DNA from: Nemertoderma westbladi
Taxonomy: Eukaryota; Animalia; Xenacoelomorpha
NCBI GenBank assembly: GCA_032718475.1
Contig: JAUCBJ010007649.1
Span: forward strand, 51,577 to 115,576
Direction: 5' to 3'
Length of the DNA stretch: 64,000 nucleotides
Below, piece by piece: positions 4,442-52,290 of this stretch (positions are counted from its first letter, which is position 1; every line of letters starts with the position of its first letter). Below the pieces are notes generated by a model. The model saw nothing but the letters and a program-made list of their open reading frames with translations, ran no database searches and was not told the DNA's origin. Both the position numbers and the translations under genes were made by a program.

Positions 4442-5662
4442 TGTAAAAGCCTTTGCTGAATTGCCCCGTTATTTTTATTATCTTTTACATTAAAATACTC
4501 TGTAGTTGATTTAATAAGTGTAAGAGACCGTATTATTACTGTATCGGTGTTTTTTAGAGGATCTAAGAGCTATTTCCTCCGTATGTGTACTGTGAAAGGC
4601 ATAGTTGATGATTCTATGGCAATTCCATGACGCAAAGGGTGATAGCTACTCTTGAACAGTAGTTACTATGACTACGGTTAACAGCTGATATTCATACGTG
4701 TTGATTTTCTTTGTTCTACGGCGTCTCTCAGTTCAGTCAGCCAATCAGAGCATTTTTATGGCTCTTGTAGAGAAATTTCCTAGAAATCACGTAATGCTTT
4801 ATGTGCAGTGTTTACATTCAGTCCTGAGCCAGGAGAGAACGGCTTGGAAATATTTTGTGCCTTTCTGTTTTTAGCTTAACACTAGTAGGCTTAATTATAA
4901 GGACATATATCCGTTATCACACACTGAATCACTGTGCAACTCAACTAAACAAACCAAATCTGCATGTACCATACACTGTGCATACTTTATATTGTTATAC
5001 TGCTATTTACTGTCGGTCCTTCATAATATGGTTGATGAATTATTATATTTGGAATAACGATAAATAACCCCGAAACTCAATATTCTTGATATACCGAAGG
5101 TAAGAGAGAAAGGTTATATATAACGATTGTGACTTATGTTAAGGTGGTTTGAAGTGAATCTAATGTTATTTGATAGACCCTACATGAGTCGGTCCGTGTT
5201 CCTTTTATATGTGACTAAAATCAGTGAAGATCGGCAGATTAGTGTGCAGTATTGTGCAGCATTGTGTATGAGTGAGACTGATAACGAAGCATTTCCTAAA
5301 GAATGCGCCATATATGTGAATTATAACTAAGCCATATCGTTGTGAGTAGTTTAAGTCATAACTCTGTTTATATAGATAGAGCGCCACGTCCTAAAGGAAC
5401 TGTTAATATTCCCCGAAGGTGAATAATATTGTCAGAGATTATATAATACTGTCAGTCGAATAATACATTAGGCTTACCTAGCAATAAGATTAAGCCGTCG
5501 AACCCAATCTCCCGGGTATATCCAGCGGGTGAATGATCGCGCACAGATTGGTTTCGACTAGTGTAGTGAATCAAATACTTGTCATAGGCTAAAAGTGATT
5601 TATTATCTAAAAGACATCCTAATTTGGCGGGTTAAACTGCCAAAGGTCTGAAAGCGCGAACA
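4442..5662 (+). repeat. E1 5' LTR (1221 bp)
   Basis: Direct repeat of 21512-22722 at offset 17060 with about 10 substitutions counted by eye; starts TGTAAAAG, ends GCGCGAACA. Confidence 0.95.
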
Positions 5663-5674
5663 ATAACGGATATA
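5663..5674 (+). promoter_or_regulatory. E1 non-tRNA primer-binding site candidate (ATAACGGATATA)
   Basis: Directly follows the 5' LTR, lacks TGG, and is the exact reverse complement of LTR 4906-4917 (TATATCCGTTAT). Confidence 0.65.
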
Positions 5675-5809
5675 GCTTCTGTATTGCAGTGTAGGCATTA
5701 AATACAGTTTAATATTGTTCTGGTAAGAACAATAACGGATATAGCTTCTTTATTGCAGTAAGCAATAAAGTTGAAAGTACCGGTCAACCGGTAAACCTGA
5801 ACGGTACAT

Positions 5810-5924
5810 CTGTAGGTCAGTAGGCCCAACTGCCAGAACCGGTACTGCTGTAGGCCCGTAGGTCCAACTGCCAGAACCGGTACTTCTGTAAGTCCGTAGG
5901 CCCAACTGTCCTAACCGGTACTTC
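5810..5924. repeat. 38-bp tandem repeat, 3 copies, in the E1 leader
   Basis: CTGTAGG...CCAACTGCCAGAACCGGTAC units start at 5810, 5848 and 5886. Confidence 0.85.
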
Positions 5925-8421: not shown

Positions 8422-8547
8422 ACTAAAGATAATTATGCGGGATACACGAGTGAAGAACTGAAGTCTATTGTCGAGTCGCAATGGAACTTCCCCGGACCCG
8501 GACTCCCGTTTGATTTATCAGAAGCTGCCTGGGAAGACATACACCGG

Positions 8548-11500
8548 ATGGGAGTAGCCAAGGAAACCATCGATCCAGCTGTGTGGAAGAGGTCTGCAGC
8601 CGGATACGCACAGGGATTCTTCAGCTCTATGGAGCGAGTAAAAGAACAACTGTTCCAACAACCTCAAGGACCTCAAGAGCAGAGACAACTGCTTTATCAA
8701 GTTAGAGAAAGAATTCTGCGAATCAGGCTAATCTTATCAGCCTTTGAGGAGGCTTCTAAACGAAGACAAGACACGTCGTTGCAAGTTGCCGTAAAGACTT
8801 GGTTTCAACGGGTGAGTCGCCAGGTTCAAGGAACAGCTCAGTGGAAAGCTCAGCTGGAGGAGCGCTCAACCCATGGAGAATCAACAGACGCTACTTTTTC
8901 CCAAGTGGAAAGTGAAGCGATGGCAGAGAAACCGCATAAGAGGGATGCCATTGACATCTATCTGTCAGACTATCAACGTTTTTTAGGTGATGACGAGTTG
9001 AGGAGAAGGTTAGAGGGACTTAGCCCTAATAGTGAAGGAACCAAGCTTGTGTTGGATGCCATCGATGTGGAAATGAGGGCTGCGAACCAGGCTAAATTTG
9101 ATGAACAACTCCGCATCACACGAGTCCAGGAGGAGCAAGTAAAGAAAAAACGTATAGAAGACAGAAAGAAAGCAGCAGTGGTAGCTGCAGAAGCAGAAAG
9201 AAAAGCGGCAGCGGCAGAGGCAGCGGCAGAGGCAAAGGCGGCAGAGGCAGCGGCAGAAGCAAAAGCGGCCGAAGCTGAAAGAAAGGCGGCAGAGGCAGTG
9301 GCAGAAGCAGAACGGAGAGCGACTGAAGAAACCACCCAATTAGAATTGGAAAACATTCAGGAGAATCAAGACTGCATAAATAAACAGTTAACAGCTAGTA
9401 ATATGCAGATGATGAATCGATCTACATATATATATGGATATGGATATACATCATCTGAGGAAGGCGATACCACCGATACTGAAGGCAAGGGAAATAGATC
9501 TCGTCTAAGTAGACGTAAAAGAACATTCCACCGTCAGAAATTGCCTGATTTGCCTCCAGCTGTTAGAAGGCAACTAAATAACACCAACTTAGGTAGTACA
9601 GAGCCCACAGACCAAATAATTAAAATAGAAAGACTCCCTACTATAGTAGATGAGCCTGAAATAATTAGGCCTGTTTTTGAAATCACCCCTTCGGTGATAG
9701 ATACACCTGTGCTCCCTGAAGCTACCTCTAAATTCCCTCTGCATAGCACTAAGCTACCTGTGCCCAGTAGAACTGCCCAGGAGACAGTTCAGGTCCTGGA
9801 CCCCGAGCGAAATATTCATGATTTGTCGCCCATTGTCCCTCGTCCGCCCGCTACAACGTTGGCGACTCCCGCTTCGGCGGTCGAATGGGTGGACGAGAGA
9901 CGGCGGGGGATGGATCTCCTGCTCGGGCAGATGCAGGAGACTGTTCAGCAATTCAAGGGCACAGTAAGGGAAAGTAGGCTAGAGTTGCAAGAAGTGCAGC
10001 AAAGTATCGCGCTAGAACGCGATAAATTAGTAAATACTCAAAGGGGTATACCACCACCCTCGGTAACAATGTGTCAACCTGTTAGGTCTGAAGTATCTCA
10101 TGCGCAAGGTGTGGAGCCTACACGCATATATACCGCTAGCGAAGTAGAAACTCCTATAGTGAACCCTATTAAGGGTAATTATAGACCTGTTGATAATGAC
10201 ATTCCCTATAGACCTGATCATAATCCGAGAAATTTATATACCGATAACTCGATATTAAATAACACGATGGCCCAAGAAAGTTTTACGCGTCAAATGGCTA
10301 GAACCGAAGCCCGGCAAGCGGTAAAGGTGGGAGAGATCGTCAAGTTCAATGGAGATGAGATGAAATGGTTACCTTTTAATGAATATTACAAAGATAACAT
10401 ACAGAACTCTGTACTATCTAATGGAGAAAAACTTAGATACCTCATCGAGTGCTTGGAAGGATCTCCTAAGTTAATGGCGTTAAAGTTTATTGGACATCCA
10501 GACGGATTAAGACAAGTTTGGGATACACTAAACATCAGGTATGGTAATAGGAATAACATCGCTGGGTATTTGTATGCAAAGTTAGTAGCGCCCCGAAAGT
10601 TTATTAGCAGCGGGATTATCGAGTTTTCCGATGAGATACAGGAGATCTGCAGACAATTAGATTGGCTAGGTAAGTCTCATGAGTATCAGAACACTATGGT
10701 TATTAGAGCAGTGGCTTCTACTTTACCGAAGGGTGGAGTAGGTACACGCTGGGATAAGAAAGTGTTATATATGATGGAACAACAACGACGAGACCCTACC
10801 ATGGCTGATCTCATGTCATTCCTAGATGGAGAAGTGAAATTACAGCTCCTGAAACTGTCCAGAGAGAAGACACCGGAAAACAAGGTAAGTGAAAAACCCG
10901 TCTCTAGGAGAAAGGTAACACCAGTGTGTTATACAGACGACGGCGAAAGCCAGACTTCTCAAGGAGAAGATAGCGGGAAAGACACTGATAGATCTTATTA
11001 TGTCAATAAAATGCCTAAAGATCAGGTAAGTAAATTCAAGTCTCGAGCAAATGATCGGAGAGAACAGGTAAGAAAAACTCCTCCCACGTCTCCCAAGAGA
11101 ATTCCGGTGAGAAAGCCCGAAGAAAAGGCAAGTGTACACAATGTGACTCAGATTAAGGTGAGTAACATCAAACCAAAATGTGCGCTATGTGATGGGACCC
11201 ATCGCTTGAATATGTGTGATGAATTTCTAAAGAAATCATTAACAGAGAGACGTGAAGTCATGTGGGACAAGCGGTTGTGTTATAATTGCCTCAGACAAGG
11301 ACATCAACGGCGAACCTGTTACTCAGACATAAGGTGTGCAAAGTGTGGTGCGAAACATCATATCTTGTTGCACGCTGAATTCGATCGAAATAGTCCTAAT
11401 CAGGTAAGTGATTCCGAACTACATGTCCAATTCAGTGATGTGAACGACACTGATCAATCTGAGATGGAAGGATTCTATACGGACGAGTTCTCCGACGAAA

Positions 11501-14500
11501 ACGAATCCTGTTACATGATAAATACCGCAGTGTATCGAGCACTCACATATGAAAAAGATACAGACAGCGACTTCACTCTAACTACTTCTGAGCGACAACC
11601 ATCGTGGAAAGCACCAACTTCCAATGTAGGAATCCGAGAATTTCCTGTAGTCCAGTTACGGGTCCATGGACCTCAGAAAAGCTATATAGTGAACGCCCTC
11701 CTGGACTCCGGCAGCACAGGAACATTCATTGATAAAGAACTAGCCGAAGACATCTTCGCTGGACAACCTAAGTTCCGAACCAAGCTAAATATGTCAGGCA
11801 TTATGCAAGTTTGGAAATCTACAGTAACAGCTGATTATTATGTAGGCGCGTTGTCCACCCCACAAGACGAACTAGGAGAACATAGCATAAGGTCAGTGAA
11901 ATTGGTGGCTATAAAGAACTTCGCTACTACTCAAGCAGACCTTTATAATTGGGACGAGGATGAGAGCATCCAACATCTTAAGATACCTCGATTCCAGACT
12001 GATTATCCTGGAGTGCAAATACTCCTCGGCCAAAACGCGCATGAGGCGCTGGAGACATTGGAGAAACGGCCTGCTCAACCGCAGCCACTACAGACCTATG
12101 CGGTAAGAACTAGAGTAGGTTGGTACTTTACTGGCCCTTCCCGTAGAACACTCAGAGAAAGACTACCGCAAGAGCGCGTCTACCAGGTGAGTGAATGGGA
12201 AGATGATACTAGTGAGGGAGACGATTTAACTGAGGGAACCCCATACTCCTCAGATAACGACGACGTGCACCAGCTTTTTGATGAGGAGAATACCATCGAC
12301 CTCCTTAAGGAAAACGAGGCTTGGCAAAACCAAGTGAACTTATGTCAACTGCTTTATCCAACTGAACGAGAAGCTTATAACGACGAGTTAAATGACGTCA
12401 TTGAGCGTTGTAATGCCAAGACTCGAGATGAACATGCCGTACCATTCTTTACGCAAGAGGCGGTAGAGCCCAATTCCTACGATAAAGCCTTGTCAGTGGA
12501 AGAGGAAAGGGCCAAGCAGATCCAAGAGACAACTACATGTTTCCTCAAAGATCAAGGTAGGTATGAAGTCGGTCTACCTTTCCGCAAGAGAGAACCGAAA
12601 TTCATCAATAACAGACCCTTGGCGGAAAAAAGAATCGCGCGACTCCATCGACGCCTTACGGCTAATTCTTCAGCTAAAGCAATGTACCAAACACAGCTGG
12701 ATAAATTTATTAGTAAGGGATACGCGGAGAGAGTACCGGAAGAAACACCTGTGACTGAAAGAACGTATTACTTAACTCACCATTACGTTCCTAAACCCGG
12801 TAAGCCACATGAAGTGAGAGTAGTGTTTGATGGCTCCGCTCTTTACATGGGTCAATCCCTTAACTCTGAATTGTTACCCGGACCCAACTTGCTTCAATCT
12901 TTGTTGGGAATTCTTTTAAGATTGAGACAATATTCGATTGCTTTCGCCTCCGATATAGAAGGCATGTTCTTACAAGTCAAGGTGTTAGACAGGGATCGAG
13001 ATAGTCTACGATTTCTGTGGTGGCCCGAAGGAGACCTCAACCAGAAACCGGTGGAGTACTGGATGACCATCCAGGCCTTTGGGATAATCTCAAGCCCTTC
13101 CAACGCCTGTTCGGTAGTGCGTACCACTGCAGAGGACAACCGAGAGGCCTTCTCTAAGGAAGTGATCGACAACATCAAGAGAGACATATACATGGACGAC
13201 AATCTGAAGTCCCTTCCATCAGTTGAGGAAGCCATTGAGGTCGCTAAAGGAACGGTAGAGTGCTTAAAAAGAGGTGGGTTTCGATTAACGAAATTCACCA
13301 GCAACTCCCGTGAGTTTCTGGAGTCGATCCCTGCGGAAGATCGAGGGGCGAAAGATCTAGATTTGATCAAAGATGATCTGCCAGAAACCAAGACACTCGG
13401 CTTGAAATGGGACACAGAGCGAGATATCCTGTTTTTCCAGCTAAAACAGCGAGATAATCCAGTTCGAACCAAACGGATTTGCTTAAGTATACTGAGCACT
13501 TATTTCGATCCATTGGGATTTATTAGCCCAGTTATCTTGATTGCTCGTAGTTTGGTACAACAAATGTGGCTTGAAAACCACTCATGGGACGATCCACTTA
13601 AGGGAGAATTATTGAAGAAGTGGATGAAATGGGAAGATTCTCTGCCGGCTATCGAGGATTTTATAATTTCCCGTTCATATTTTGGTCATGTTCTCCCTAC
13701 GTATTCCTATCAACTCCATGTGTTTGGAGATGCCAGCGATATGGGAATAGGTATAGTAGCCTATCTAAGAGTGGAAACTCCGGATGGAATCAAAGTCGCC
13801 CTGGTTACTTCTAAGGCATTAATCAACAACAAGTTGAAAGTTCCTCGAGCGGAGTTAAAAGCGGCTCTATACGCTACAGCCATCGGCCGGAATGTAACCG
13901 AACAGATTGACTATCCATTAGAGAAAACTGTCTATTGGACCGACGCTTTACTCGTGTTAGAGTATATAACCAATGAAGTCTGTCAGTTCAGCGTCTTCGT
14001 TACCAACAGGGTAGCCATCATACTTAGTCGCACGACGATGGACCAATGGAGACATTGCCCCGGAACGATTAATCCAGCAGACATCGCTTCCCGAGGAGCG
14101 ACTCCAAAGGAATTGGTAAATACTCCCGAATGGTTAGGTGGACCCGACTTTCTCTACAAAGAAGAAGAAGAATGGCCTCCCCATCTCACAACAGCAGAGA
14201 TCAGACAGGCCAAGGGAGCGGAGAAAGTTAAACCCAAAACTCGAGCGAGTAAATCGAAGTTGTTTAAACCTGCGGTTGATCTATCTGTATTATTTACTTC
14301 CGGAGAGGATGCTTTGGATCCGAAACCCACCGCCACGACTAAAGAAGTCTTGGAAATCCGTGACAAGGATTGGAAATCTGGACTACCAGATATCGCGCAA
14401 GGACTCTCACCCCTCTTGCAGAGAGCGATACGTCACTACAGCTCCTGGAATCGGCTCTGTAAAGCCGTCACCTATTTAAAACGATGTTTTCATCATCGTT

Positions 14501-16074
14501 ACTCCGGGACAAAGACCCATAGTGATGATGCTCCATCAACATCTGCACGAGTCCATGTTGTTAAAGATCTTCCCCAATACAAGGTATCCGACAGGTTTCT
14601 AAAGGAGAAGATCAGTTACCAGGAGCATGATGAAACCAACAAACAGATGCTGAGACTCCTACAATGCTATGAGGATCCCGATAAGTATTTCCTGTTGTTA
14701 AGAAATCCGCAGATGCGCTTAAGGGATCGCTTCTCTAGTACCATGATAGATGGGTTAATACGTGTTGGAGGCAGGCTCACCAACGCCCCATTATCCTTTG
14801 ACACTAAGTTTCCCATACTCATTAGAAATCTTGACATACAAATCAAGATGATTGTAGACGTTCATAGCAAACTGTATCATGCTGGAAGAGAACGAGTTCT
14901 GAGCGAAATTCGAACTCGCTACTATTTTTATAAACCCCGTAGGGCTCTGAACCAAGTCCTTAGGAACTGCATACCCTGTAGGAAAGCATTCAGTAGGCCT
15001 TTGACACAGCGAGAGGCAGAATTACCTAGGGAAAGAGTAAGCTTCTACGAACCACCCTTTACTAATACCGGTGTGGATTTATTTGGCCCTATTGAAGTAT
15101 ATCGTGCCCGGACTATAGTCAAGAGATGGTGTGTCATCTTCGTTTGTATGACTTGTAGAGCTATCCATCTCAATATGGTAAATGATCTATCCACCAACAG
15201 CTTCGTGTTGAGTTTACGACGACAGATCGCTCGCTTCGGAACCAGTAACACGATGAGATCGGATAAGGGAACGAACTTCATTGGCGCCAACAACGAAATT
15301 CAAGCTTACGTAAAGGACTGGAACAAAAGACAGGTGGACGATCAGCTAAAGATAACAGCGTCTAGCTGGACCTTCAATGCCGCCGACGCCCCTTGGTGGG
15401 GAGGAAGTTGGGAGAGATTGATTAGGAGCGTGAAGACTGCGTTCCACTTTATTGTACCTTGTCGCGCTTATCTCACCGACGAACTATTGCGGACGTTAAT
15501 GGAGGAAATCGCCGCCTATCTCAACGAAAGACCGCTTATGCCAGTCTCTTCAAGTCCTGATTCCCTGGAAGCGCTAACACCCGCGCACTTTCTACTGAAG
15601 AAACCCGTAGCCATGCTCCCACGATCGGAGATCACAGACGGAGACGAATACTGCCGTCGAACCTGGCAACTTATGCAGTTGCTATCCCGTCGTTTCGCTG
15701 ACCATTTCGAGAAACATTACCTGCCCACTCTACAACTTCGAACTAAGTGGTTTGCGCAGCAAGAAAACGTCAGCGCTGGAGACATGGTGCTTATTGTGGA
15801 CCCCGATCTCCCACGTAAGCGATGGCAAACAGGACGTATCATCGAGACTTATATCTCGAGCGATGGTTTGGTGCGATCAGTAGAACTCGTCGTCATGCGG
15901 CGTAACTATAAGAAACCAGGGATAGTCTTTGAGACTCAACAGCTCAACCGCCCAGTGGGTCGTTTATGTTTACTGGAAAGAGACAGAGAGCTCTCCGGAA
16001 ACTATGGAAGGCAAGAAACGCTTCCCACGACCACTTCCCTAATCCAACCGACATCTAGGGACTCCCCAACTTAA
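8548..16074 (+). CDS. gag-pol: E1 BEL/Pao Gag-Pol polyprotein (Gag with Cys/His knuckles, aspartic protease, RT, RNase H, integrase)
   Basis: CYNCLRQGHQRRTC knuckle; LLDSGS; YMDD; FGDASD, PRAEL, WTDA, NPADIASRG; HxxxxH/CxxC; GVDLFGP, SDKGTNF, WWGGSWERL. Confidence 0.97.
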   Translation: MGVAKETIDPAVWKRSAAGYAQGFFSSMERVKEQLFQQPQGPQEQRQLLYQVRERILRIRLILSAFEEASKRRQDTSLQVAVKTWFQRVSRQVQGTAQWKAQLEERSTHGESTDATFSQVESEAMAEKPHKRDAIDIYLSDYQRFLGDDELRRRLEGLSPNSEGTKLVLDAIDVEMRAANQAKFDEQLRITRVQEEQVKKKRIEDRKKAAVVAAEAERKAAAAEAAAEAKAAEAAAEAKAAEAERKAAEAVAEAERRATEETTQLELENIQENQDCINKQLTASNMQMMNRSTYIYGYGYTSSEEGDTTDTEGKGNRSRLSRRKRTFHRQKLPDLPPAVRRQLNNTNLGSTEPTDQIIKIERLPTIVDEPEIIRPVFEITPSVIDTPVLPEATSKFPLHSTKLPVPSRTAQETVQVLDPERNIHDLSPIVPRPPATTLATPASAVEWVDERRRGMDLLLGQMQETVQQFKGTVRESRLELQEVQQSIALERDKLVNTQRGIPPPSVTMCQPVRSEVSHAQGVEPTRIYTASEVETPIVNPIKGNYRPVDNDIPYRPDHNPRNLYTDNSILNNTMAQESFTRQMARTEARQAVKVGEIVKFNGDEMKWLPFNEYYKDNIQNSVLSNGEKLRYLIECLEGSPKLMALKFIGHPDGLRQVWDTLNIRYGNRNNIAGYLYAKLVAPRKFISSGIIEFSDEIQEICRQLDWLGKSHEYQNTMVIRAVASTLPKGGVGTRWDKKVLYMMEQQRRDPTMADLMSFLDGEVKLQLLKLSREKTPENKVSEKPVSRRKVTPVCYTDDGESQTSQGEDSGKDTDRSYYVNKMPKDQVSKFKSRANDRREQVRKTPPTSPKRIPVRKPEEKASVHNVTQIKVSNIKPKCALCDGTHRLNMCDEFLKKSLTERREVMWDKRLCYNCLRQGHQRRTCYSDIRCAKCGAKHHILLHAEFDRNSPNQVSDSELHVQFSDVNDTDQSEMEGFYTDEFSDENESCYMINTAVYRALTYEKDTDSDFTLTTSERQPSWKAPTSNVGIREFPVVQLRVHGPQKSYIVNALLDSGSTGTFIDKELAEDIFAGQPKFRTKLNMSGIMQVWKSTVTADYYVGALSTPQDELGEHSIRSVKLVAIKNFATTQADLYNWDEDESIQHLKIPRFQTDYPGVQILLGQNAHEALETLEKRPAQPQPLQTYAVRTRVGWYFTGPSRRTLRERLPQERVYQVSEWEDDTSEGDDLTEGTPYSSDNDDVHQLFDEENTIDLLKENEAWQNQVNLCQLLYPTEREAYNDELNDVIERCNAKTRDEHAVPFFTQEAVEPNSYDKALSVEEERAKQIQETTTCFLKDQGRYEVGLPFRKREPKFINNRPLAEKRIARLHRRLTANSSAKAMYQTQLDKFISKGYAERVPEETPVTERTYYLTHHYVPKPGKPHEVRVVFDGSALYMGQSLNSELLPGPNLLQSLLGILLRLRQYSIAFASDIEGMFLQVKVLDRDRDSLRFLWWPEGDLNQKPVEYWMTIQAFGIISSPSNACSVVRTTAEDNREAFSKEVIDNIKRDIYMDDNLKSLPSVEEAIEVAKGTVECLKRGGFRLTKFTSNSREFLESIPAEDRGAKDLDLIKDDLPETKTLGLKWDTERDILFFQLKQRDNPVRTKRICLSILSTYFDPLGFISPVILIARSLVQQMWLENHSWDDPLKGELLKKWMKWEDSLPAIEDFIISRSYFGHVLPTYSYQLHVFGDASDMGIGIVAYLRVETPDGIKVALVTSKALINNKLKVPRAELKAALYATAIGRNVTEQIDYPLEKTVYWTDALLVLEYITNEVCQFSVFVTNRVAIILSRTTMDQWRHCPGTINPADIASRGATPKELVNTPEWLGGPDFLYKEEEEWPPHLTTAEIRQAKGAEKVKPKTRASKSKLFKPAVDLSVLFTSGEDALDPKPTATTKEVLEIRDKDWKSGLPDIAQGLSPLLQRAIRHYSSWNRLCKAVTYLKRCFHHRYSGTKTHSDDAPSTSARVHVVKDLPQYKVSDRFLKEKISYQEHDETNKQMLRLLQCYEDPDKYFLLLRNPQMRLRDRFSSTMIDGLIRVGGRLTNAPLSFDTKFPILIRNLDIQIKMIVDVHSKLYHAGRERVLSEIRTRYYFYKPRRALNQVLRNCIPCRKAFSRPLTQREAELPRERVSFYEPPFTNTGVDLFGPIEVYRARTIVKRWCVIFVCMTCRAIHLNMVNDLSTNSFVLSLRRQIARFGTSNTMRSDKGTNFIGANNEIQAYVKDWNKRQVDDQLKITASSWTFNAADAPWWGGSWERLIRSVKTAFHFIVPCRAYLTDELLRTLMEEIAAYLNERPLMPVSSSPDSLEALTPAHFLLKKPVAMLPRSEITDGDEYCRRTWQLMQLLSRRFADHFEKHYLPTLQLRTKWFAQQENVSAGDMVLIVDPDLPRKRWQTGRIIETYISSDGLVRSVELVVMRRNYKKPGIVFETQQLNRPVGRLCLLERDRELSGNYGRQETLPTTTSLIQPTSRDSPT

Positions 16075-17721
16075 TATCGTTCGGAGTGGGCGTGTGACTC
16101 TATTATTTTATATTATTTTATTATTTTTATATTTATGTATGTATTACTATGTAATTTTATTATAATCGTTTTATTTAATTTAGTAGAATATTATTTAGCG
16201 ATTATTTAGTAGAATAGTGCAATATGTTCATGTTATTGCGTACGTAATTACTTATATTATATTTAGTGCGACGGCGAGAAATAATTCTTTTTCTCTTTCC
16301 TTACTGTTCGTATTATATTATAAATACGTAACTACAGTAAGATGAAATGTCCGTACTTATTAAAGTACAATAAAGCCACTACTATATTCAAGTATTATTG
16401 GTAGGCAGAGTATTAGGAATGCAAAGTTCAGATCCTCGTGTCTCGGCTAAACCAAGCTCTGGGTAGACCTTGGAAACGACTTGCCTCTTCACACTGACAT
16501 TGCTTCGTGCGATATTGCTCTCATACCGTATATTAAATAATACATATAGTAGCGTGAGGTCCCTCTAACAGTAGCGTGAAACGCAAATAAATCTGTTAAA
16601 CCCTTTGACCATCTGTAATTCTAGTCGATTAAGATATCGCGGCACCCACCGATATACTTGAAAGACAAATTCTAGAATCAGTGGTTAACGTCCCCAGACA
16701 AGTTCTGGAATAAATCGGTGCCCATCTCAAATATTAATTATTTAATATTTGCAAATCTAATAAATCAAAATCTGTAAAATTCAAATCCTTCAACAATTCT
16801 AGTCAATTAAGATATCGTAGCATTTACCGATATTCTTAAAAAGACAATTGTCATAGAATTCAGGATCTTGTGTCCCCAGACATATTCTAGAATCAAAATA
16901 TGTCCATCTAATTAGTAAATAATAAAATTTCAGGGAATAATTTAAATTCATGCCTTTTAATGAATTTAATAAATTGCCATTTTTTGCGCAATTTATAACA
17001 TTCCCAAAATTCCATTAATTAATAGATCACGGGAGCGGAGATTTATCTTCTTATGCGTATGAGTGTGCGAAAGTCTCCCAAACATAGTCAATAGCCGATA
17101 AAATTCATAAAGTCATGTATCAAACAGGACATTGACTATTAAAGAATTACTATTAAATAACATCCCAGATCTGTATGCATTGGAATTACCCTAATTCTAC
17201 CGCTAGCTTTGCATAATGTCACCATAGCAACAACCACGCTAGAATTAGAATTGAGTTAAAGGAACAATAGAAAGCTTGTCCCATTGAATAGCATAGGGAA
17301 TAAATAGCGCACTACTAGTATCCAAGGATACATAATAATACAGTGACATTCTGGAAGGCATTGACTAACAGACAAATGGCCCGAATGTGCGTAGTTGTGA
17401 CCAGTTGTGTGGTATTTGTGAGTTTATAGGTGAATGTTACTGCTAAAGTGTGTTTACAGTAGCTAGTCGCAATCGTGAAAGTAACCTAACTCTCCAAGGA
17501 AAACCTGAAGTACATCTAAGCCTTTGGGACGGACAGTGGAGTGACTTGTGCCGGTTATCGTTGTCGTTGTACGGCTACGTCGTTGGCGAAAGTATAGCGA
17601 CAGCGGTACATCGGCGCTGAGAATCTCACACTGTCCGGGGGCAAGGGAGAAGTAGGCAGCGACGCCCGCTTGCCTAATAAATATAAACTCATTATAATAT
17701 TGGTGAACTCGTATAGCAGAT

Positions 17722-19911
17722 ATGACTGAATTAATAGAAGATGATCTTGGTATCAGGGAGAGATATACTCTACCTTTACAAGCGTTTGTCGATAGCTTGA
17801 TACGCGGCGACGCTGATCCAACTACTACGGAGGACGAAGGTCGTTATATCGAACCGCCAATGTCCCAGGAGCAACTTACGCGTGAATTGGACTATAGAAA
17901 ATTCACTACTCGCTATACGCATCGTAATGGTACGTATATGGACTTCTTGACCACTGGTCATCCTATTGATTTACACGACACCGACGATGTAGACACCGAA
18001 AGGGAAATGGTTTTATTTAACTATCATACCCAGCGGAGTCGAAACGATAAATCGAGAATAGAACACGAGAACTCTATTCGAAATAAGCTCGAAAGAGAAG
18101 ACGTTGAAGAACCTAATAAACGTAGCGGCTTCAACGAATATCTAGAATTTCTAAGAGAGACCTATCTCAATGTTGCCAGTCAACAAAACCTCGAAACTCG
18201 ATATCCCCAAGGTATACATCCAGATCCTATAATGGAACTCAAACGGCTCTATTTTACGATGATGTATCTTACCGCCGATCGACCCCTACCTGTCGTTCCA
18301 GATAGCTTCGAACAGATGGAGGAGTATTGTAAAACTGGAGAGCGATCACCCGCGTTTCCCCTTCAGGACATGCGTCTTTGGTATTACTGTGACGAATGCC
18401 CTAGACCTAACCAGCAGATCGAAAGGCATAAACATCCGCGGAGACGTTGCGCTAAACACAGTTTTACGCGATATACTTATGGGAGTTTCGAGCGAAACCT
18501 TTTCGACGTATCACCTACGGTCGCGCGCCTTAAACGATCATTGAACAAACCCATGATCAGAGTTCCGGAATACTCGGTCAGACCTCCTCATTCCCAAGTG
18601 ATACCTCAAACTCTCGATCCTAATAGTATTACGGATCCTCCCGAGCTATACTCACTGTTCAAAGATCTAGTGTTACCTGAACAGTTGATTGGTGGCGCTC
18701 CAGTAGTGGGTTCGTTAGATATTCGCCAACCTTACCTCGCTGGACTAGGACGCGGTCATCTAATATCACCGTTTAACCCCTACAATCGTCCTGGCCTCCC
18801 TCCGATCCAACCTGTTACAGAAGTCGAAGAGAGCGTGATACGAAATGCATTGGACGCTATTCGGCAGAAAATCGGAAAAGGAACTTACGATTGCTTGGAG
18901 AAACGTAAATTGCAACAACAAGTCCAAGCGGTGAAAGAACTAGCTTTGCCCCAGTTCGATAGAGAAATACAGAATCTAGAGGAGGACATCGAACGTGGAC
19001 GAACCTACTCCTTACAGGAATTCCTGGACGAGCGCTTGCAACAACAAGCTGAGGAAAATCAGCTCGAGGAGAGACATATAGAGCTGACTGAGAGGGAAGA
19101 AGCTGCTTTAGCTCAACCAGAAACTCAAATTCTCGTGACGGATCTCTATTCCAAAACGATCCTCCACCCCTCGATGGTTCCTCATTTTAAAGACAAGCTC
19201 TTTGCTACGGTACAGCCTCAACCACCGGTTAATACTGATCTCAGATCTCACGAGCTCATTGCTGACGCTCCTATGATACAACGTCCACCCATAGCGGCTG
19301 CTCGTGTCGATGGTGTACTTGTTGAGCCTCCGGACAATAGAGCGGATCTTGTCCGTCGCATGGTACACGATGTTAACATACGCGCTAGACCTTTGCCGGA
19401 CTCATTTTATGGAATTAAGGATCATCCTTATTACGTCAATTTAAAGCAATATTACATGGTAAAACCAGAAGATCCTACGCATAGTCTGAAGTTTCTACCA
19501 TTGATCAATCCTCTCGATCTCGTCGAACTCGAACAACTACAAAAACATCTAGATCAGCTAGTTAAACTAAACTCATTTCGAAAACCGTATAATATTTCCA
19601 GAATAGAGAAAGAAATATTACCTCCGTACAATCTTGATGGTTTCATTAAAACTCGATTGGTACACTGGAATCTTGACGTGTTATTCGAGGAAGAAAGAAT
19701 AAAACGATATGGAGATGTGGAAACCTATAGTACACAATGCTTAAAGTATAGAGATTTACCCAATGCTAGCGAATGCGCTACTTTGTGGCATCCAGTGGGA
19801 ATGACTCTCGAAAACGCCACTAAAGAATGGAATGAGACTCTTAATGTTATCGAGATGTATGGCGTTGTTACTTATGACAACGAAGGTAGCGTTCCGGTGG
19901 GAGAACTATGA
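17722..19911 (+). CDS. E1 accessory ORF, N-terminal part (CxxC...CxxH domain, coiled coil, ExoI-like YDNEG at the end)
   Basis: 729-aa ORF homologous to E2 48853 ORF (DPxxExxRLYxTxxYLT; CDEC/CGAC; RCAKH/RCSHH; YDNEG). Confidence 0.85.
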   Translation: MTELIEDDLGIRERYTLPLQAFVDSLIRGDADPTTTEDEGRYIEPPMSQEQLTRELDYRKFTTRYTHRNGTYMDFLTTGHPIDLHDTDDVDTEREMVLFNYHTQRSRNDKSRIEHENSIRNKLEREDVEEPNKRSGFNEYLEFLRETYLNVASQQNLETRYPQGIHPDPIMELKRLYFTMMYLTADRPLPVVPDSFEQMEEYCKTGERSPAFPLQDMRLWYYCDECPRPNQQIERHKHPRRRCAKHSFTRYTYGSFERNLFDVSPTVARLKRSLNKPMIRVPEYSVRPPHSQVIPQTLDPNSITDPPELYSLFKDLVLPEQLIGGAPVVGSLDIRQPYLAGLGRGHLISPFNPYNRPGLPPIQPVTEVEESVIRNALDAIRQKIGKGTYDCLEKRKLQQQVQAVKELALPQFDREIQNLEEDIERGRTYSLQEFLDERLQQQAEENQLEERHIELTEREEAALAQPETQILVTDLYSKTILHPSMVPHFKDKLFATVQPQPPVNTDLRSHELIADAPMIQRPPIAAARVDGVLVEPPDNRADLVRRMVHDVNIRARPLPDSFYGIKDHPYYVNLKQYYMVKPEDPTHSLKFLPLINPLDLVELEQLQKHLDQLVKLNSFRKPYNISRIEKEILPPYNLDGFIKTRLVHWNLDVLFEEERIKRYGDVETYSTQCLKYRDLPNASECATLWHPVGMTLENATKEWNETLNVIEMYGVVTYDNEGSVPVGEL

Positions 19912-19920
19912 ACTACGCGA

Positions 19921-21519
19921 ATGATACATATACGAGGACTCGCTGGTTCTACCCACGTATTCACTCGAGCGTGTTCCGACGTGATTGATTATTCTTTTGA
20001 AACCCTTACGGAGACACAAAAGAAACTTCGACATGGACAATTCGAGCTCGCGCAGCGTTACGTCACCGACACCGAGCGCAAACCGGCCATGGGTATCGAT
20101 GGATCAATGTTACCCCAACCTGTGCTCGAAATGTTGTTTAACGAAAGAATCCTAAAAATTGGCTCAGCTGTTTATGGAGATCTCCAAAACGACTTCCGGA
20201 ATATGGAAAACATTCCATACCCTTTCGTTGATACTCAGCTGATTGCTCCTTGGGCCGAAGGCCGAGGTTTCTTTCGCACTATGTATGCCAATACACCCAG
20301 CGACATTACTAAAGTACAACGGACATCCATCGGACATCTTGCCTTTCAAGAATATGGATGGAACTTCAAAGTTGGAAATCCTATCAATTACCAGCAGGTA
20401 TATGGAGATCATTACTCTCGTTTATATTTTGATGGACCATTAACTGCGCCTGGTGCCGTATATAGCTTTATGAGTGTTCCACTTCGCCCTTCCTTAGCTA
20501 TATACACGATCTTTGAAAACGCAGCACTTGCCGGTTGGCTAGCCGATGTGTGCAGTCGTACCATACGCGCTCATCCCTTAAAACTTGGAACTAAACTCGC
20601 CAAGTTAGACGAACACAATAAGTTCATACGTTTCGAATGTTTCCGGCGCTTTCTGACTCCGTTCCGTAACGTCGATAGTCAGTTCAAGGACCGCGCGCTG
20701 ACCAAACTCAGTCTGAGAGACTCAGCTGCGGAGAAATTGAGTAGCGCTGGATTTGCCGTGTTTCAAGACGTTTGTATACAGAACTTACATTCATCTGTTA
20801 TACAAAGACCCCGAATACCTACAGGTTATTCTGTCGTGGAAATACAGACAGTGGATCCACTTACTGAGACAGACGCACCCACTTCGTCTATACAGCTGGA
20901 GGATGAACCAGTGTGCTTGGAATCAGAAGCGATTCAGCCTACAACTTCCCGGAGCAGTGACAATGATTATGTCATAGAGTGGTATCAAGGTCCACAACGT
21001 CTCACAGCGTACGATTATCGACACGCCAACTACGTTTCTCGAAAACGTTGTCGATTATGCGCATCGAGAGACCACTTCACTCCTCTAGACTCGAGCGTAC
21101 CTTGTTCCTATTTCCTCGAACAACCGATGATGGAAATATATTGTGCTTATTGCAGACTTAATAACTCTCATATCTTTGCCGTCTGCCCACAATTTATGAC
21201 TCAATGTCACTACTGTCAACTTAAAGGACATGAAAGTTACAATTGTCCCTTTAATCGCGATTTAGAGAGCGTAGACGAGATAATCACCCTGCGATACATC
21301 CGAGCTTGGGAAGCGAACGCGGATTTACATTGCGAATCTCGACATCGCTATTACCCTGGACGAGCTTACGAAGGAGTTTACGCGTTCCATCCTTATCTCT
21401 TCGCGTCGATTGAACAGAAAACACGCGTACCAAGTTACGAGTTAATGAAGCGTGTTGGTGAGTGTATTTCCACCAAGTTTGTCAGAAAATACCTTAGAAA
21501 CGTTAGAAACGTTTGCTGA
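19921..21519 (+). CDS. E1 accessory ORF, C-terminal part: 3'-5' exonuclease-like domain plus three CCHC knuckles; in frame with the 17722 ORF across one TGA
   Basis: LPQPVLEMLFNERILKIGSAVYGDL...FVDT resembles WRN/EXD ExoII; YTIFE at the ExoIII position; CHYCQLKGHESYNC knuckle. Confidence 0.8.
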   Translation: MIHIRGLAGSTHVFTRACSDVIDYSFETLTETQKKLRHGQFELAQRYVTDTERKPAMGIDGSMLPQPVLEMLFNERILKIGSAVYGDLQNDFRNMENIPYPFVDTQLIAPWAEGRGFFRTMYANTPSDITKVQRTSIGHLAFQEYGWNFKVGNPINYQQVYGDHYSRLYFDGPLTAPGAVYSFMSVPLRPSLAIYTIFENAALAGWLADVCSRTIRAHPLKLGTKLAKLDEHNKFIRFECFRRFLTPFRNVDSQFKDRALTKLSLRDSAAEKLSSAGFAVFQDVCIQNLHSSVIQRPRIPTGYSVVEIQTVDPLTETDAPTSSIQLEDEPVCLESEAIQPTTSRSSDNDYVIEWYQGPQRLTAYDYRHANYVSRKRCRLCASRDHFTPLDSSVPCSYFLEQPMMEIYCAYCRLNNSHIFAVCPQFMTQCHYCQLKGHESYNCPFNRDLESVDEIITLRYIRAWEANADLHCESRHRYYPGRAYEGVYAFHPYLFASIEQKTRVPSYELMKRVGECISTKFVRKYLRNVRNVC

Positions 21520-22722
21520 ATTGCCCCGTTATTTTTATTATCTTTTACATTAAAATACTCTGTAGTTGATTTAATAGGCGTAAGAGACCGTATTATTGCT
21601 GTATTGGTGTTTTTTAGAGGATCTAAGACCTATTTCCTCCGTATGTGTACTGTGAAAGGCATAGTTGATGATTCTATGGCAATTCCATGACGCAAAGGGT
21701 GATAGCTACTCTTGAACAGTAGTTACTATGACTACGGTTAACAGCTGATATTCATACCTGTTGATATTCTTTGTTCTACGGCGTCTCTCAGTTCAGTCAG
21801 CCAATCAGAGCATTTTTATGGCTCTTGTAGATAAATTTCCTAGAAATCACGTAATGCTTTATGTGCAGTGTTTACATTCAGTCCTGAGCCAGGAGAGAAC
21901 GGCTTGGAAATATTTTGTGCCTTTCTGTTTTTAGCTTAACACTAGTAGGCTTAATTATAAGGACATATATCCGTTATCACACACTGAATCACTGTGCAAC
22001 TCAACTAAACAAACCAAATCTGCATGTACCATACACTGTGCATACTTTATATTGTTATACTGCTATTTACTGTCGGTCCTTCATAATATGGTTGATGAAT
22101 TATTATATTTGGAATAACGATAAATAACCCCGAAACCCAATATTCTTGATATACCGAAGGTAAGAGAGAAAGGTTATATATAACGATTGTGACTTATGTT
22201 AAAGTGGTTTGAAGTGAATCTAATGTTATTTGATAGACCCTACATGAGTCGGTCCGTGTTCCTTTTATATGTGACTAAAATCAGTGAAGATCGGCAGATT
22301 AGTGTGCAGTATTGTGCAGCATTGTGTATGAGTGAGACTGATAACGAAGCATTTCCTAAAGAATGCGCCATATATGTGAATTATAACTAAGCCATATCGT
22401 TGTGAGTAGTTTAAGTCATAACTCTGTTTATATAGATAGAGCGCCACGTCCTAAAGGAACTGTTAATATTCCCCGAAGGTGAATAATATTGTCAGAGATT
22501 ATATAATACTGTCAGTCGAATAATACATTAGGCTTACCTAGCAATAAGATTAAGCCGTCGAACCCAATCTCCCGGGTATATCCAGCGGGTGAATGATCGC
22601 GCACAGATTGGTTTCGACTAGTGTAGTGAATCAAATACTTGTCATAGGCTAAAAGTGATTTATTATCTAAAAGACATCCTAATTTGGCGGGTTAAACTGC
22701 CAAAGGTCTGAAAGCGCGAACA
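21512..22722 (+). repeat. E1 3' LTR lacking the first 10 bp
   Basis: Homology to the 5' LTR starts at TTTGCTGAATTG (equivalent to 4452); no PPT upstream. Confidence 0.93.
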
Positions 22723-28527: not shown

Positions 28528-28670
28528 TGATGAATTATTTCACTATAAGGTAGCATTTGTAGTTTAACTTTAACGTAAAAACTTTTGAAAATCCGACGTA
28601 TTTTGATTAAGTTACAGTAATGTAATATGCCTATTTATATTTGTACACATAAAACCCTTAGGTACTCTCG

Positions 28671-28740
28671 TGGCGTAGTGGTCAGATGGTTAAGGCGTTG
28701 GTTACATTACGTAGGTTACGAGTTCGAATCCCAGTCGGGA
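28671..28740 (+). other. tRNA-derived sequence with Pol III A and B boxes inside the E2 LTR (second copy 54787-54856)
   Basis: TGGTCAGATGGTTAAGGCG resembles the Ser/Leu tRNA D-arm; B-box GTTCGAATCCC; T-run at about 28749; no clean cloverleaf. Confidence 0.6.
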
Positions 28741-28787
28741 AATTTGTATTTTGGGGCCATTTATTTTCGTTTAGGTGCTAATTGGTA

Positions 28788-29056
28788 GGCCAATGAGAAG
28801 CGTACAACGTAGCGGATAATGAGCCAGGCCAATCATAGGGCATAAATTACCTTATTGCTCAAATGTGAGGCAGTGGAAAATTCTGTTAGGATTCCATGTC
28901 CCAGATTAGTGTAAGGGCCGGACTGCGTTGAACGATGAGCTGGGCCAATCATAGGGCACGAAACACTTTATTGCTCAATTGTGAAGCTGTGGAAATTTCT
29001 GTTTAGTTTCCATGTGCAATTTCTAGTATAAAAGGCCGGTTTGCCTTCGGTTATCA
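28788..29056 (+). promoter_or_regulatory. E2 LTR Pol II promoter: three GGCCAAT boxes, TATAAAA (29027-29033), predicted start at about 29056
   Basis: CCAAT boxes near 28790, 28829 and 28945; a TCA initiator-like site 29 nt after TATA. Confidence 0.7.
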
Positions 29057-30807
29057 TGTTACACACACTTCCGTTGTAATTTCTCATAACGTTACTCTAT
29101 CAGTTTATTCTTGTAAAATTAGTTAATTCGGTTTCTTGTTGAAACTTACTTTGATAAATCCTTTGTAAAACTGTAAATATACTGCAATTTCCTGACATGT
29201 TTTCTTTTGGTCCGACTTCGGGACAGCCGAACACCAGGGAGATGGCAGCCTAGACCGTTAGGCCGTAAGCAACGCAGGGAAGAGATGTCCACAACACGCT
29301 AGCGCCCACATTGGATTGACCGCGCACCCCCTTTGCCCTTCGAAATGCTCAACTTGCCATGCAGCGCCCGTTTTGTGAGAAGGTAAGACTTTGTTCGACG
29401 CCCTTGCCCGCCGTAAGACCTATAGATCAGGGTAAGCGTGACACCGCACTGGACGCCGCAAATTTAGGATCAAATAATTATATCCAGACACCCCCCCCCT
29501 TCTTGTCAGTCCTACGAACCCCTGGGTTAACCTGTACTTCCTACAGGTGCGAACTATTGCCATTCGTCAGTACGCGAGTACACATTAGGCACGGACAGCA
29601 TACGTTCCATAATTTAGTGATTCCTAGCACTGACTGTTTGGTACCGGTTCGCTTTGTAGAACGTACATTAGTACCCCCCCCCCCCTCCTGTCTGGAGTTA
29701 GCTATTTGATCAGGCAAGGAGCATTTCTGCTACCGGCACACTGCTTGGCCTAGGGAGGTTTATTAATATCCTACCGCGCCTTGCCACGTACTGATAGGTA
29801 TTGCTGCTAACTACCGCAGCAACAAAGTTCTAGAATTAAATTAGTATACCAGATCAGCTAACGTACGGTAGCGATTAACCCCTATTCTTATCTTACAACC
29901 AGAATCTGGTATTAGTGCCGATCACGGGTGTAGTTACTAACACTGTGGTTGCCCATTGGGTTGTGGATAGGAAGGAGAGAGCTTTGACGTCATTCGTGAG
30001 TATAAAGTTCTACAAACGCGACTAGTTTATTTTAGTAGCTAGCGCACGGTATCATTTTAGTCAGAAAATCACTAAAACCTAGTAAAAGGAATTACTCGAA
30101 ATTGTTTTATTTGTAACACACCCACACACACACGCCCTAAAACATATTGCCCTTAAAGTTCTACTAGCTATAGCGTACTATACATTACTTTAGGTGGAAA
30201 TTATCTGTATTTGTATAATTAGGATCTGATTTAGTTGCGGCAAAATAAGGAGTATTTCACTTTCGTTATTAAACTGTTGTTTGTCTGGACAACGGTATTG
30301 TTACATTTAGGCCTGACCTTTTAGACTGATTTCGTACAGGGGGATCAGTTATTGTTACATTTAGGTACGACCCCTTTTCGACTGATTTAGGACTGTCAGT
30401 GTTGTTACGCTAGGTCTGTTAACCCACTAGCTCGTATATAACCCATATAAATCACACCGCGGCAAGTTACTGTATTTAGGACTGTCAGTGATAGTTAGGA
30501 TTCGCTGCGCGGGGATTGTTTTCCCGTGAGTTTGGTCTGTTACGGTAACTGTACATCTGCCTCACCGGTTAGAGGACAGGTATCCTTCTGTCTAGTACGT
30601 AGGCATTCGACCCGCTCACGTACATAGAATAGATACAAGGCTCTGTTCCTCGCCAGTAGTCGTTTGTGTACTATATCTGTTTGTTTAGATATCCTGGACT
30701 GGGATTTGTTGTCAGATACTGTACAAGCCCGTATACATTACTAGAGTCTCATAGTAAGATACATCGTTACTAGGATCTGGTAAGCGGTATACTACTGGAC
30801 CCTTACA

Positions 30808-30817
30808 GTAGGAAGTA
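30808..30817 (+). promoter_or_regulatory. E2 non-tRNA primer-binding site candidate (GTAGGAAGTA)
   Basis: Directly follows the LTR; exact reverse complement of LTR 29535-29544 (TACTTCCTAC). Confidence 0.62.
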
Positions 30818-31769
30818 TTTTATATAAATTAGTATATAGTGCTTCTATCATAGTGTATAGTATTCCTACTACAGTAGGAAGTATATTTTCCTTTAGTTTC
30901 GATTGTTAGCTATTGAAAGTAGGAGATATTTAAAATTTAAGGTTAGTAAATTTAGTAATTTAGAACGTCCCCTGCTTCAGTAGGCTTTTAGGGTAGCTAG
31001 TACTTTCGTATTTAATATTTGACTAGCTAACAGTTAGTTTGTAGCACTTTGTTTTACGCCGTGTGTGTGCGGTGTTACTTTTCGGTACTTGAAAAGGTAC
31101 ATAGGGTTTAAAGACCAATTTGTATCGGTACCTAGGAAGAATTTTCGTAAGCGTAGAAGTAAAACTCTCACCTTCGACCTTTTCAGGACTCAAGGACTCA
31201 TTTCTGGACCGCTTCGAGGATTAGACCGCTTTTCGCAAAGTTTGGGAGACAATAAATTCGTCCGCGCCGCCGAAAAACGGAAAGACCCACGTCCGGTTTG
31301 TATTTGGGAATTTGTACGACTGGAAGATCAAAGGAACGTAAGTTTTACGACTCGCGTCGTTCAAACTTAAGAAAGCACAGTAGTACTCAAAATTTGTGGG
31401 TTTCACTGTCTATTAGTAGTGTTGTTGGTACATATTTTCCCTTTAGACGTTGCTGTTTGGCCTATTGTTTTACTTGTTGATCTATATTTTGTTAACGTAT
31501 ACCGTTATCTCACTTATTCGTACAAATTTAGCCGGTAGGCTAGATTACTACTTATTTTATTATATACCTTGTTAGTTTTATTTGTACCGGTTAGGGTATA
31601 TATATGATATATATATATATCAAGGTAAGTTTGACATTTGTGCATTTCGACATTTTGACATTTCGACATTCTGACTTGTTGATTTATTTGTACCGGTTAG
31701 GTAAGTTTGACACTTCAACATTCAGACACTTGACATTTTATTACCCGTACTTGACGTATATAATAAGAC

Positions 31770-41492: not shown

Positions 41493-42021
41493 TGTTAGCT
41501 TATCCAATTCCGCTAACACAAACCCATAGAGTGAGCCATAAAGCAATATTGGGAGCCTATTGTCAGCCCAGTAAACGGGGACAATAGGCCCCAAAGGAGA
41601 CACACACAATAAGGGTCAGGGGTTACTCCCCTGACAAGAGAGAGAACAGCAAGGGCGAAGGGAAGCACTTCAGAGGGGGGCAAAGGGTGCCAACAGGGGT
41701 ATCAACCAATCAGAGGGGGGAAAGGCATCGATTGAGTAGCAATAAGGCCACCGTGCAATATAACCAGTTACCAGTAATCATACCGGTCAGTTATTCAGTT
41801 TACTCAGTCAGATCAGTAGGGTGGAACGGGGACTTCTGTCACCGTCCGCTACCGCCATCTATATATTACCTATTGTGTCATACTATATTATATCAACTGT
41901 CAGACTATTATACCTTTATACATATTACCCAACATCAGAACTCTTTTACCTTTCACACACGGCGGGGACGCGTGGATAGAAAACCCAAACGGATAAACCG
42001 GGATCCGTAGATCCCGTCACA
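41493..42021 (+). repeat. E3 5' LTR
   Basis: TGTTAGC...CCCGTCACA; direct repeat of 48275-48803. Confidence 0.97.
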
Positions 42022-42030
42022 GTGACAGAA
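42022..42030 (+). promoter_or_regulatory. E3 non-tRNA primer-binding site candidate (GTGACAGAA)
   Basis: Exact reverse complement of LTR 41834-41842 (TTCTGTCAC). Confidence 0.6.
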
Positions 42031-42150
42031 CTAGATCCGCCCAGCTGCCCTGACAGAGATAGAATCCTAGCAGCTGCCCTAACAGTCTGACAGTGATAGA
42101 ACTAGATCTAACCAACTGACAGACTGTGGCTGCCAGCTACCAAAGGCGAG

Positions 42151-48803: not shown

Positions 48804-48808
48804 AGCCA

Positions 48809-52286: not shown

Positions 52287-52290
52287 TTAA

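Follow-up and report, generated by a model that had tools for sequence, protein, structure and literature searches.

The closest described systems are the self-priming elements of the Tf1/sushi group, which are Ty3/gypsy chromoviruses. As far as the accessible parts of the sources go, the primer of Tf1 is the first 11 nt of its own RNA, released by RNase H cleavage (PMC7175516), a pretzel structure of three duplexes forms around the primer-binding site (PBS) of Tf1 (bioRxiv 10.1101/2022.12.06.519325), and Tj1 is likewise self-priming (PMC4600332). Self-priming has also been predicted, according to the available portion of the source, in the TAR lineage of plant Ty1/copia elements (Houba, Osr-1) and in Tcn1 chromoviruses from an LTR complement of at least 10 nt that starts 0 to 5 nt after the LTR (PMC6317226). 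For the Belpaoviridae, the ICTV profile gives tRNA priming only, from an 18-nt PBS that fits the tRNA-Arg or tRNA-Gly of the host, in genomes of 4.2 to 10 kb with LTRs of 0.2 to 1.2 kb (PMC8742986).

Our literature search, which had most subscription papers, supplements and Repbase-type annotations outside its coverage, found neither BEL/Pao self-priming nor a splice-built primer. No BEL/Pao case occurs in the accessible parts of PMC3601003 (whose one self-priming passage lies outside that coverage), PMC5443660 and PMC6934838, and a term search found that "PBS" and "tRNA" are absent from PMC3118150, PMC554778 and PMC4131045. The first-pass annotation of this locus had likewise known of no BEL/Pao case, and the search and the tRNA-only family profile agree with it. 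One BEL-like element, Cer7 of Caenorhabditis elegans, has reportedly been proposed to supply its own tRNA-like primer, which the element is reported to encode internally as a tRNA-like RNA and which is thus not, as here, a segment of the LTR.

Three LTR elements (E1, E2 and E3), all on the + strand, occupy much of the 64-kb window, that is, the whole stretch of DNA that was analysed. They resemble Tf1, Tf2 and Tj1, as these are described in the accessible parts of the sources, in lacking a tRNA PBS, in carrying a short stretch of LTR that can pair with the site following the 5′ LTR, and in having U5 helices nearby (PMC7175516, PMC4600332, bioRxiv 10.1101/2022.12.06.519325). The arrangement would work like Tf1 but is outside the Tf1/sushi group: E1 and E2 are Belpaoviridae with no chromodomain match, the primer is predicted to be internal, after or across an intron, rather than the first 11 nt of the RNA, and E1 to E3 carry a second PBS copy at +66 to +71. 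The cutting of an internal primer is not described in the parts of the Tf1 literature that were examined. With regard to the rule used for TAR and Tcn1, as it appears in the available text, E1 and E2 fall within it and E3, with 9 nt, is one nucleotide short; those lineages belong to other superfamilies, and the same text describes no intron-built primer.

The elements and their surroundings

The main parts of the three elements are as follows.

4442-22722, + strand: E1, whole element; target-site duplication ATACC; the host DNA is a 24-bp satellite array
4442..5662, + strand: E1 5′ LTR, TG...CA
8422..16074, + strand: E1 gag-pol ORF, open, 2550 aa; BEL/Pao domains; catalytic motifs present
17707..21519, + strand: E1 extra ORF, spread over two frames and interrupted by a stop at 19909-19911; has zinc knuckles (CCHC) and possibly an exonuclease-like domain
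21512..22722, + strand: E1 3′ LTR, first ~10 nt missing; without a polypurine tract
28528-56922, + strand: E2, whole element
28528..30807, + strand: E2 5′ LTR, 2280 nt
31767..40628, + strand: E2 gag-pol ORF, open, 2953 aa; BEL/Pao domains
48793..53987, + strand: pieces of the E2 extra ORF, homologous to that of E1
54644..56922, + strand: E2 3′ LTR, 67 differences from the E2 5′ LTR
41493-48803, + strand: E3, whole element, nested inside E2; target-site duplication AGCCA
41493..42021, + strand: E3 5′ LTR, identical to the E3 3′ LTR
42112..45646, + strand: E3 gag-like ORFs; pol absent
48275..48803, + strand: E3 3′ LTR, with a polypurine tract directly before it

The description of all three as BEL/Pao elements held for E1 and E2 on their Pol domains. 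Both have the Pao peptidase A17, DUF1759 and DUF5641 and the order PR-RT-RH-IN, and the catalytic motifs of reverse transcriptase, RNase H, protease and integrase can be recognised in their sequences; PF05380 matches them with E values of 9e-36 and 1.5e-39 and is present in all of their best relatives. They are sister lineages (46% identity over RT-RNase H) that form a long-branched pair with a support of 0.998, standing apart from the best 120 database relatives, to which they are 39 to 44% identical. They share with the Belpaoviridae of the ICTV profile a single gag-pol ORF, the Pao peptidase, DUF1759, DUF5641 and (apart from the shortened start of the E1 3′ LTR) TG..CA LTRs, but E1 is 18 kb long, the LTRs of E2 measure 2.3 kb, both have an extra ORF, and none of E1 to E3 has a tRNA site. 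For E3, which lacks pol, a tentative assignment as a pol-less BEL/Pao derivative rests on sequence similarity of its Gag knuckle and on the BEL-type protease of a sister fragment: the zinc knuckle matches 23 of 122 BEL proteins in a comparison set without gypsy proteins and is 84% identical to that of the neighbouring fragment, whose protease matches 79 of the 122. This E3-like fragment (57043-58785) carries a Gag knuckle and a BEL-type protease and ends near 58785 with an E3-like U5 stem and CA.

E3 has both TG..CA LTRs and a 5-bp duplication. The duplication is also present in E1, where the 3′ LTR is shortened at its start and the two LTRs show 13 differences. Since E2 has no target-site duplication and its LTRs differ at 67 positions, it may have arisen by recombination between two insertions. 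The two E2 LTRs differ sharply over about 55 nt from the predicted start site on (29056-29110 versus 55172-55219). Satellite arrays with units of 24, 62 and 86 bp fill 1-4441 and 22723-28527, and the same point of the 24-bp unit holds both E1 and the left end of E2. Elsewhere in the window there are 12/24-bp coding tandem repeats between the E2 RNase H and integrase (38441-38762), an insertion of a 163-bp tandem repeat in the extra ORF region of E2 (51249-51900), a DUF6451 fragment on the - strand that is probably a decayed non-LTR element (58982-59731), and inverted 15-bp repeats at 63579-63700 that form a long hairpin, perhaps a DNA transposon end, in which miRNA matches stay below Rfam thresholds.

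The extra ORFs lie after pol in both elements and have no Pfam or PDB match. Among 1.84 billion representatives, one plausible distant relative was found, P0122, which has a weak PF01612 match (E 0.2) and a D-x-E (Exo I) motif that is missing from the E1 and E2 ORFs; the predicted structures, with pLDDT values of 30 and 41, are too poor for a structural comparison. A role as a trimming exonuclease is unsupported, and because the first catalytic motif of P0122 is missing we do not credit the extra ORF with the cut proposed below. The U3 of the E2 LTRs (28662-28750 and 54778-54866) holds a tRNA-like stretch in which motifs resembling an A box and a B box precede a run of T; it may be what is left of a SINE, or a Pol III promoter. 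As a primer of the element's own it was rejected, as neither ARAGORN nor Rfam makes a call and the stretch contains no PBS complement.

Complementarity between the LTR and the site that follows it

In each element, the sequence directly after the 5′ LTR has an exact complement inside the same LTR, as had been claimed.

4906..4917, + strand: E1 candidate self-primer, 12 nt
5663..5674, + strand: E1 PBS position, complementary to 4906-4917; without TGG
29534..29544, + strand: E2 candidate self-primer, 10 nt plus one G:U
30808..30818, + strand: E2 PBS position; without TGG
41819..41856, + strand: E3 5′ extension arm (41819-41825) and candidate self-primer (41834-41842), with a further arm that pairs with 41961-41970
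42022..42042, + strand: E3 PBS position (42022-42030) and extension partner (42036-42042)

The complementarity is real and present in all three elements, with exact matches of 12 nt (E1), 10 nt (E2) and 9 nt (E3), and no TGG of a tRNA PBS occurs within 8 nt of any of the three LTR ends. The paired LTRs place these ends at 5662, 30807 and 42021, each reading ACA, so that each candidate site begins at LTR+1. On the other side of the helix, the next base cannot pair with the last base of the LTR in any of the three, and pairing thus stops opposite LTR+1, the register that had been described for them.

The matches had been given chance values of 7e-5, 2e-3 and 2e-3. They are indeed rare, but the figures themselves changed: dinucleotide shuffles of the LTR reached the element's own length in 2 of 5000 cases for E1, 20 of 5000 for E2 and 3 of 5000 for E3, which gives 4e-4, 4e-3 and 6e-4. 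When 3000 start positions in each leader were used as a control, the own length was reached at 2 (E1), 5 (E2) and 4 (E3), and among these positions are LTR+1 itself, for E1 and E2 the second PBS copy, and for E3 a distinct 11-nt pairing between leader and LTR. Given that all three elements of the window show the complement, there was no selection among elements.

Both extensions of the core that had been noted are present, namely the G:U pair in E2 and seven pairs in E3 (six Watson-Crick and one U:G). Pairing past the core exceeds shuffles only in E3 (2/500, versus 256/500 in E1 and 423/500 in E2), and a longer 5′ helix extension was accordingly rejected as a common feature. Primers built by splicing were also rejected for these three elements, in which no junction beats the contiguous match (the best in E2 has 9 nt).

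Related BEL/Pao families

A check proposed together with the original observation was to look for LTR-PBS complementarity in related families. A metagenome scan gave 79 loci, 35 of them with a long-range repeat; 12 of these had a readable CA end, 11 went to a blind scan and 12 were unused. The 12 readable loci represent 11 families with both LTR ends readable, one boundary having been shifted by 1 nt by hand. Matches were accepted at offsets of 0 to 3 after the LTR, and a GT[AG]..YAG junction was allowed.

Under this strict rule, 8 families have a self-complement of 10 to 15 nt, in 7 of them across a junction and in one contiguous. The junction families have predicted introns with GTAAG donors in six cases and GTACG in one, and acceptors that are mostly pyrimidine-rich. 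A ninth family, L077, has a 10-nt self-complement only if any GT donor is accepted, a relaxation made post hoc (8/11 without it). Thus, in 9 of the 11 families the LTR is complementary to its own PBS over 10 to 15 nt and a tRNA-type site is lacking, and in 8 of these 9 the match spans a predicted GT..AG intron of the LTR, with the acceptor inside the primer. Controls reached such lengths in 0 to 5 of 200 shuffles and at 0 to 1 of 100 leader positions. The other two families, L041 and L053, have TGG, and their complements extend over only 7 and 4 nt. Across families and under the strict donor rule, own PBS-LTR pairs reach at least 10 nt in 10 of 14 cases and cross pairs in 7 of 182, two of which involve sister families. 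The blind scan of 8 further families gave 5 with 10 to 11 nt, 2 without a 10-nt match and 1 with TGG, although this is weaker because 5 to 24 positions were tested per locus. In the tree of reverse transcriptases, L041 and L053 are sisters nested near E1/E2 among the self-complementary families; the inner supports are low, and we therefore claim no order of events.

An AATAAA or ATTAAA hexamer follows the primer at 11 to 97 nt in all nine self-complementary families, which is what strand transfer needs. No tRNA genes were found in the window or in the 56 of the 79 loci that were scanned. One BEL/Pao element (L061/L062) forms a tandem array with a period of 6138 and shared LTRs, and carries a predicted splice-built self-primer.

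On sequence grounds, the complementarity is not due to chance and is common to a wide BEL/Pao branch. The claim that the lineage self-primes is strongly supported in one part, an LTR-derived primer, since nine of eleven families pair with different letters and the two TGG families do not; its other parts, the cut and the content of the RNA, are inferred.

A second copy of the PBS

E1, E2 and E3 have a second copy of ACA plus their own PBS, at +69, +66 and +71, respectively.

5713..5743, + strand: E1 anti-PBS 8-mer (5713-5720) and second PBS copy (5732-5743), +69, 20/20 including the preceding ACA
30863..30883, + strand: E2 anti-PBS 8-mer (30863-30870) and second PBS copy (30874-30883), +66, 17/20
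42093..42101, + strand: E3 second PBS copy, +71, 18/20, with ACA before it

Because the PBS sequences of the three elements differ, the second copies track the PBS of their own element. In E1 and E2, the 8-mer between the copies could, as judged from its letters, pair either at the junction of LTR and PBS or with the second PBS copy. The 11 relative families have at most 14/20 matches, none near +66 to +71. The second copy might be a decoy or a switch, which is a guess on our part, and repeated duplication during strand transfer is equally possible. Some DNA contigs of the E1 family skip 68 to 72 nt between the two PBS copies.

Predicted position of the primer in the RNA

The candidate primer had been described as internal to the transcript in E2 and E3, so that a cut would be needed. 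This fits both elements provided that the predicted start sites are correct. With the TATA box at 29027, the E2 primer would lie about 480 nt inside the predicted transcript, and a TATA-like box near 41757 together with initiator-like TCAGT at 41787-41813 would place the E3 primer 20 to 46 nt inside the predicted RNA. In E1, the primer had by implication been taken as the 5′ end of the RNA, for which we found no support: a TATA-like box at 4896, which alone would place the RNA start after the primer, and an acceptor-like site at 4874 point in opposite directions. Copies of E3 vary at the predicted start (41782-41795).

4858..4874, + strand: E1 predicted splice-acceptor-like site, the only one in the LTR with at least 11/14 pyrimidines; 31 nt before the primer
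29493..29509, + strand: E2 strongest predicted splice-acceptor-like site, 13/14 pyrimidines, best of three; 25 nt before the primer

The acceptor-like site at 4874, the sole strong one of the E1 LTR, would speak for an RNA start farther upstream in this element; no consensus donor was found between 4520 and 4874. The E2 LTR has four donor-like sites (29265-29432). Given that acceptor-like sites 31 and 25 nt before the primers echo the acceptor found inside the primer in the relatives, the sequence suggests, in a post hoc reading, that the E1 and E2 primers sit in the second exon of a spliced leader. A possible second acceptor (29546) lies 2 nt beyond the end of the E2 primer, which would be lost if that acceptor were used. 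Homology between the E1 and E2 promoters was rejected as a means of locating the E1 start, 101 of 300 shuffles scoring equally high.

AATAAA is absent from the LTRs of E1, E2 and E3, and ATTAAA is absent after the primer in E1 and E3. Strong donor-like sites at 5100, 30754 and 30780 lie between primer and PBS, and splicing from any of them into the long leader would strip the PBS from the mRNA.

Folding and variation among copies

Stem-loops at the end of U5 had been noted in E1 and E3, and both were found.

5623..5644, + strand: E1 predicted U5 stem-loop; in addition, 5645-5659 of U5 is predicted to pair with 5537-5549
41999..42016, + strand: E3 U5 stem-loop, the stem free of the substitutions listed for the E3 family

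In free folding, the primer:PBS helix has a modelled probability of at most 0.06 in 6 of 7 folds, and in two the primer is predicted to pair with the second PBS copy instead. Forcing the helix would cost 0.8 and 5.2 kcal/mol in E1, 2.7 in E3 and 18.2 in E2. Once it is forced, U5-side helices appear in the models of all three elements; a duplex of the 3′ flank of the PBS with the LTR sequence after the primer is absent from these forced folds.

Variants of the E3 LTR and PBS were collected from contigs of four runs (18 substitutions, and 12 of 40 indels). None of the 18 substitutions falls in the 66 helix positions (primer, PBS, extension arms, R-U5 helix and U5 stem), which gives P 0.05 over 441 nt and 0.019 over the 273 nt of the transcribed part, values that are optimistic, as the variants cluster and the indels are 12 of 40, so that conservation of the E3 primer and PBS is suggestive only. 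Three of the substitutions fall in 41975-41981, the partner in the helix preferred by free folding, which weakens that rival helix. In the E1 family, no change of primer or PBS was seen among 40 of the 193 substitutions, too few to count. Depth drops, and joints and loose ends begin, at 4918, directly after the E1 primer, and copies of the family are highly variable straight after the last base of the primer (4918-4993).

Possible mechanism and alternatives

It is very probable that RNA derived from the LTR is the primer by some route. We think it somewhat likelier than not that the route operates in cis, an internal LTR segment of the element's own RNA priming the minus strand after a cut at its 3′ end. 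The low probability of the helix in free folding and the modelled cost of forcing it speak against this route, as do the missing poly(A) hexamers after the E1 and E3 primers, the TATA-like box at 4896 and the possible E2 acceptor at 29546. We infer the following course, from transcription and splicing to annealing, cut and enzyme. Transcription would begin upstream of the segment, so that the primer becomes internal: in E1 and E2 it would lie 25 to 31 nt into the exon that follows an LTR intron, in E3 in a leader without an intron, and in most relatives splicing itself would put it together. The segment would anneal to the PBS next to the U5 stem. Cleavage at the 3′ end of the segment, for which the RNase H of the element is the probable enzyme, as in Tf1, would free a 3′-OH opposite LTR+1. 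Strong-stop DNA would then copy U5 and R back to the cut and transfer to the 3′ R, and for all sequence 5′ of the cut, including the intron, the 3′ LTR copy would be the template. When the plus strand is copied over the primer, the PBS would be rewritten at every round; this would account for the constant agreement of PBS and primer despite letters that vary from family to family. For its enzymes, E3 would depend on other elements in trans.

The most serious alternative, though unlikely, is that the same LTR segment acts in trans, as a short RNA that is transcribed from solo LTRs or ends at the poly(A) site of the 5′ LTR, or as a small RNA derived from such a transcript. This RNA would undergo splicing where required, and trimming or cleavage, while the genomic RNA would remain unspliced. 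Such a primer would account for the intron that 8 of the 9 self-complementary relatives keep in the LTR without requiring one copy to be spliced and the other not; the poly(A)-type hexamers 11 to 97 nt after the primer in the relatives, and the modelled cost of long-range folding in cis in E2, also favour it. However, the E3 helices beside the primer connect R with U5 in cis and contain none of the listed variants, and no trimming enzyme is at hand, the extra ORF lacking the D-x-E motif of its sole plausible relative and the relatives, at 6 to 7 kb, having little room for such an ORF.

Less probable still, and in our opinion improbable, is that the pairing is a regulatory or packaging structure, masking the PBS or serving dimerisation, with a host RNA, for instance a tRNA fragment, as the actual primer. 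The additional PBS-pairing 8-mers of E1 and E2 and the second PBS copy in all three elements do look like a switch, and the anticodon loop of a tRNA with the GTC anticodon could presumably pair with nucleotides 1 to 7 of the E3 site. Nevertheless, the PBS letters differ in nearly every family, whereas host tRNAs are few and conserved; the complements stop at LTR+1 to +4, the place required for the end of a primer; and the complement is absent in the TGG families.

Slightly more improbable is a primer supplied by the 3′ LTR copy, with the genomic RNA ending or being trimmed at the segment and its 3′ end folding back onto the PBS. This would work even if the TATA-like box at 4896 leaves the E1 segment upstream of the start, and E1 and E3 have no canonical poly(A) signal after the primer. 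Against it, poly(A)-type hexamers follow the primer in 9 of 9 relatives, and if the primer were spliced in the 3′ copy, the progeny LTRs would lose the intron, which eight families nevertheless keep. Chance complementarity has a negligible probability: the E2 and E3 matches are short and complements of 10 nt occur in 7 of 182 unrelated cross pairs, but all three window elements and 9 of 11 relatives have a complement that is rare under shuffling, and the relatives refute chance unless their LTR ends were misread.

Implications for the BEL/Pao group

Beyond priming from the element's own LTR RNA in cis, we propose, tentatively and at a little less than even confidence, that a large BEL/Pao branch dropped tRNA priming and uses an internal leader primer that is mostly built by host splicing, while in the lineage of E1 to E3 the primer is in one piece, just after an intron (E1, E2) or without one (E3), and the second PBS copy and an anti-PBS hairpin form a priming switch. 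BEL/Pao is one of the three big groups of LTR retrotransposons. Self-priming here, if borne out, would be a third independent origin of the mechanism, after the Tf1/sushi gypsy elements and the predicted TAR copia cases, with a primer that is internal rather than terminal and that in the relatives exists only after splicing. The spliceosome would thus license reverse transcription in most families, which would tie retrotransposon replication to host splicing and free the elements from silencing by tRNA fragments. It would also explain why PBS-based finders miss or mislabel such elements.
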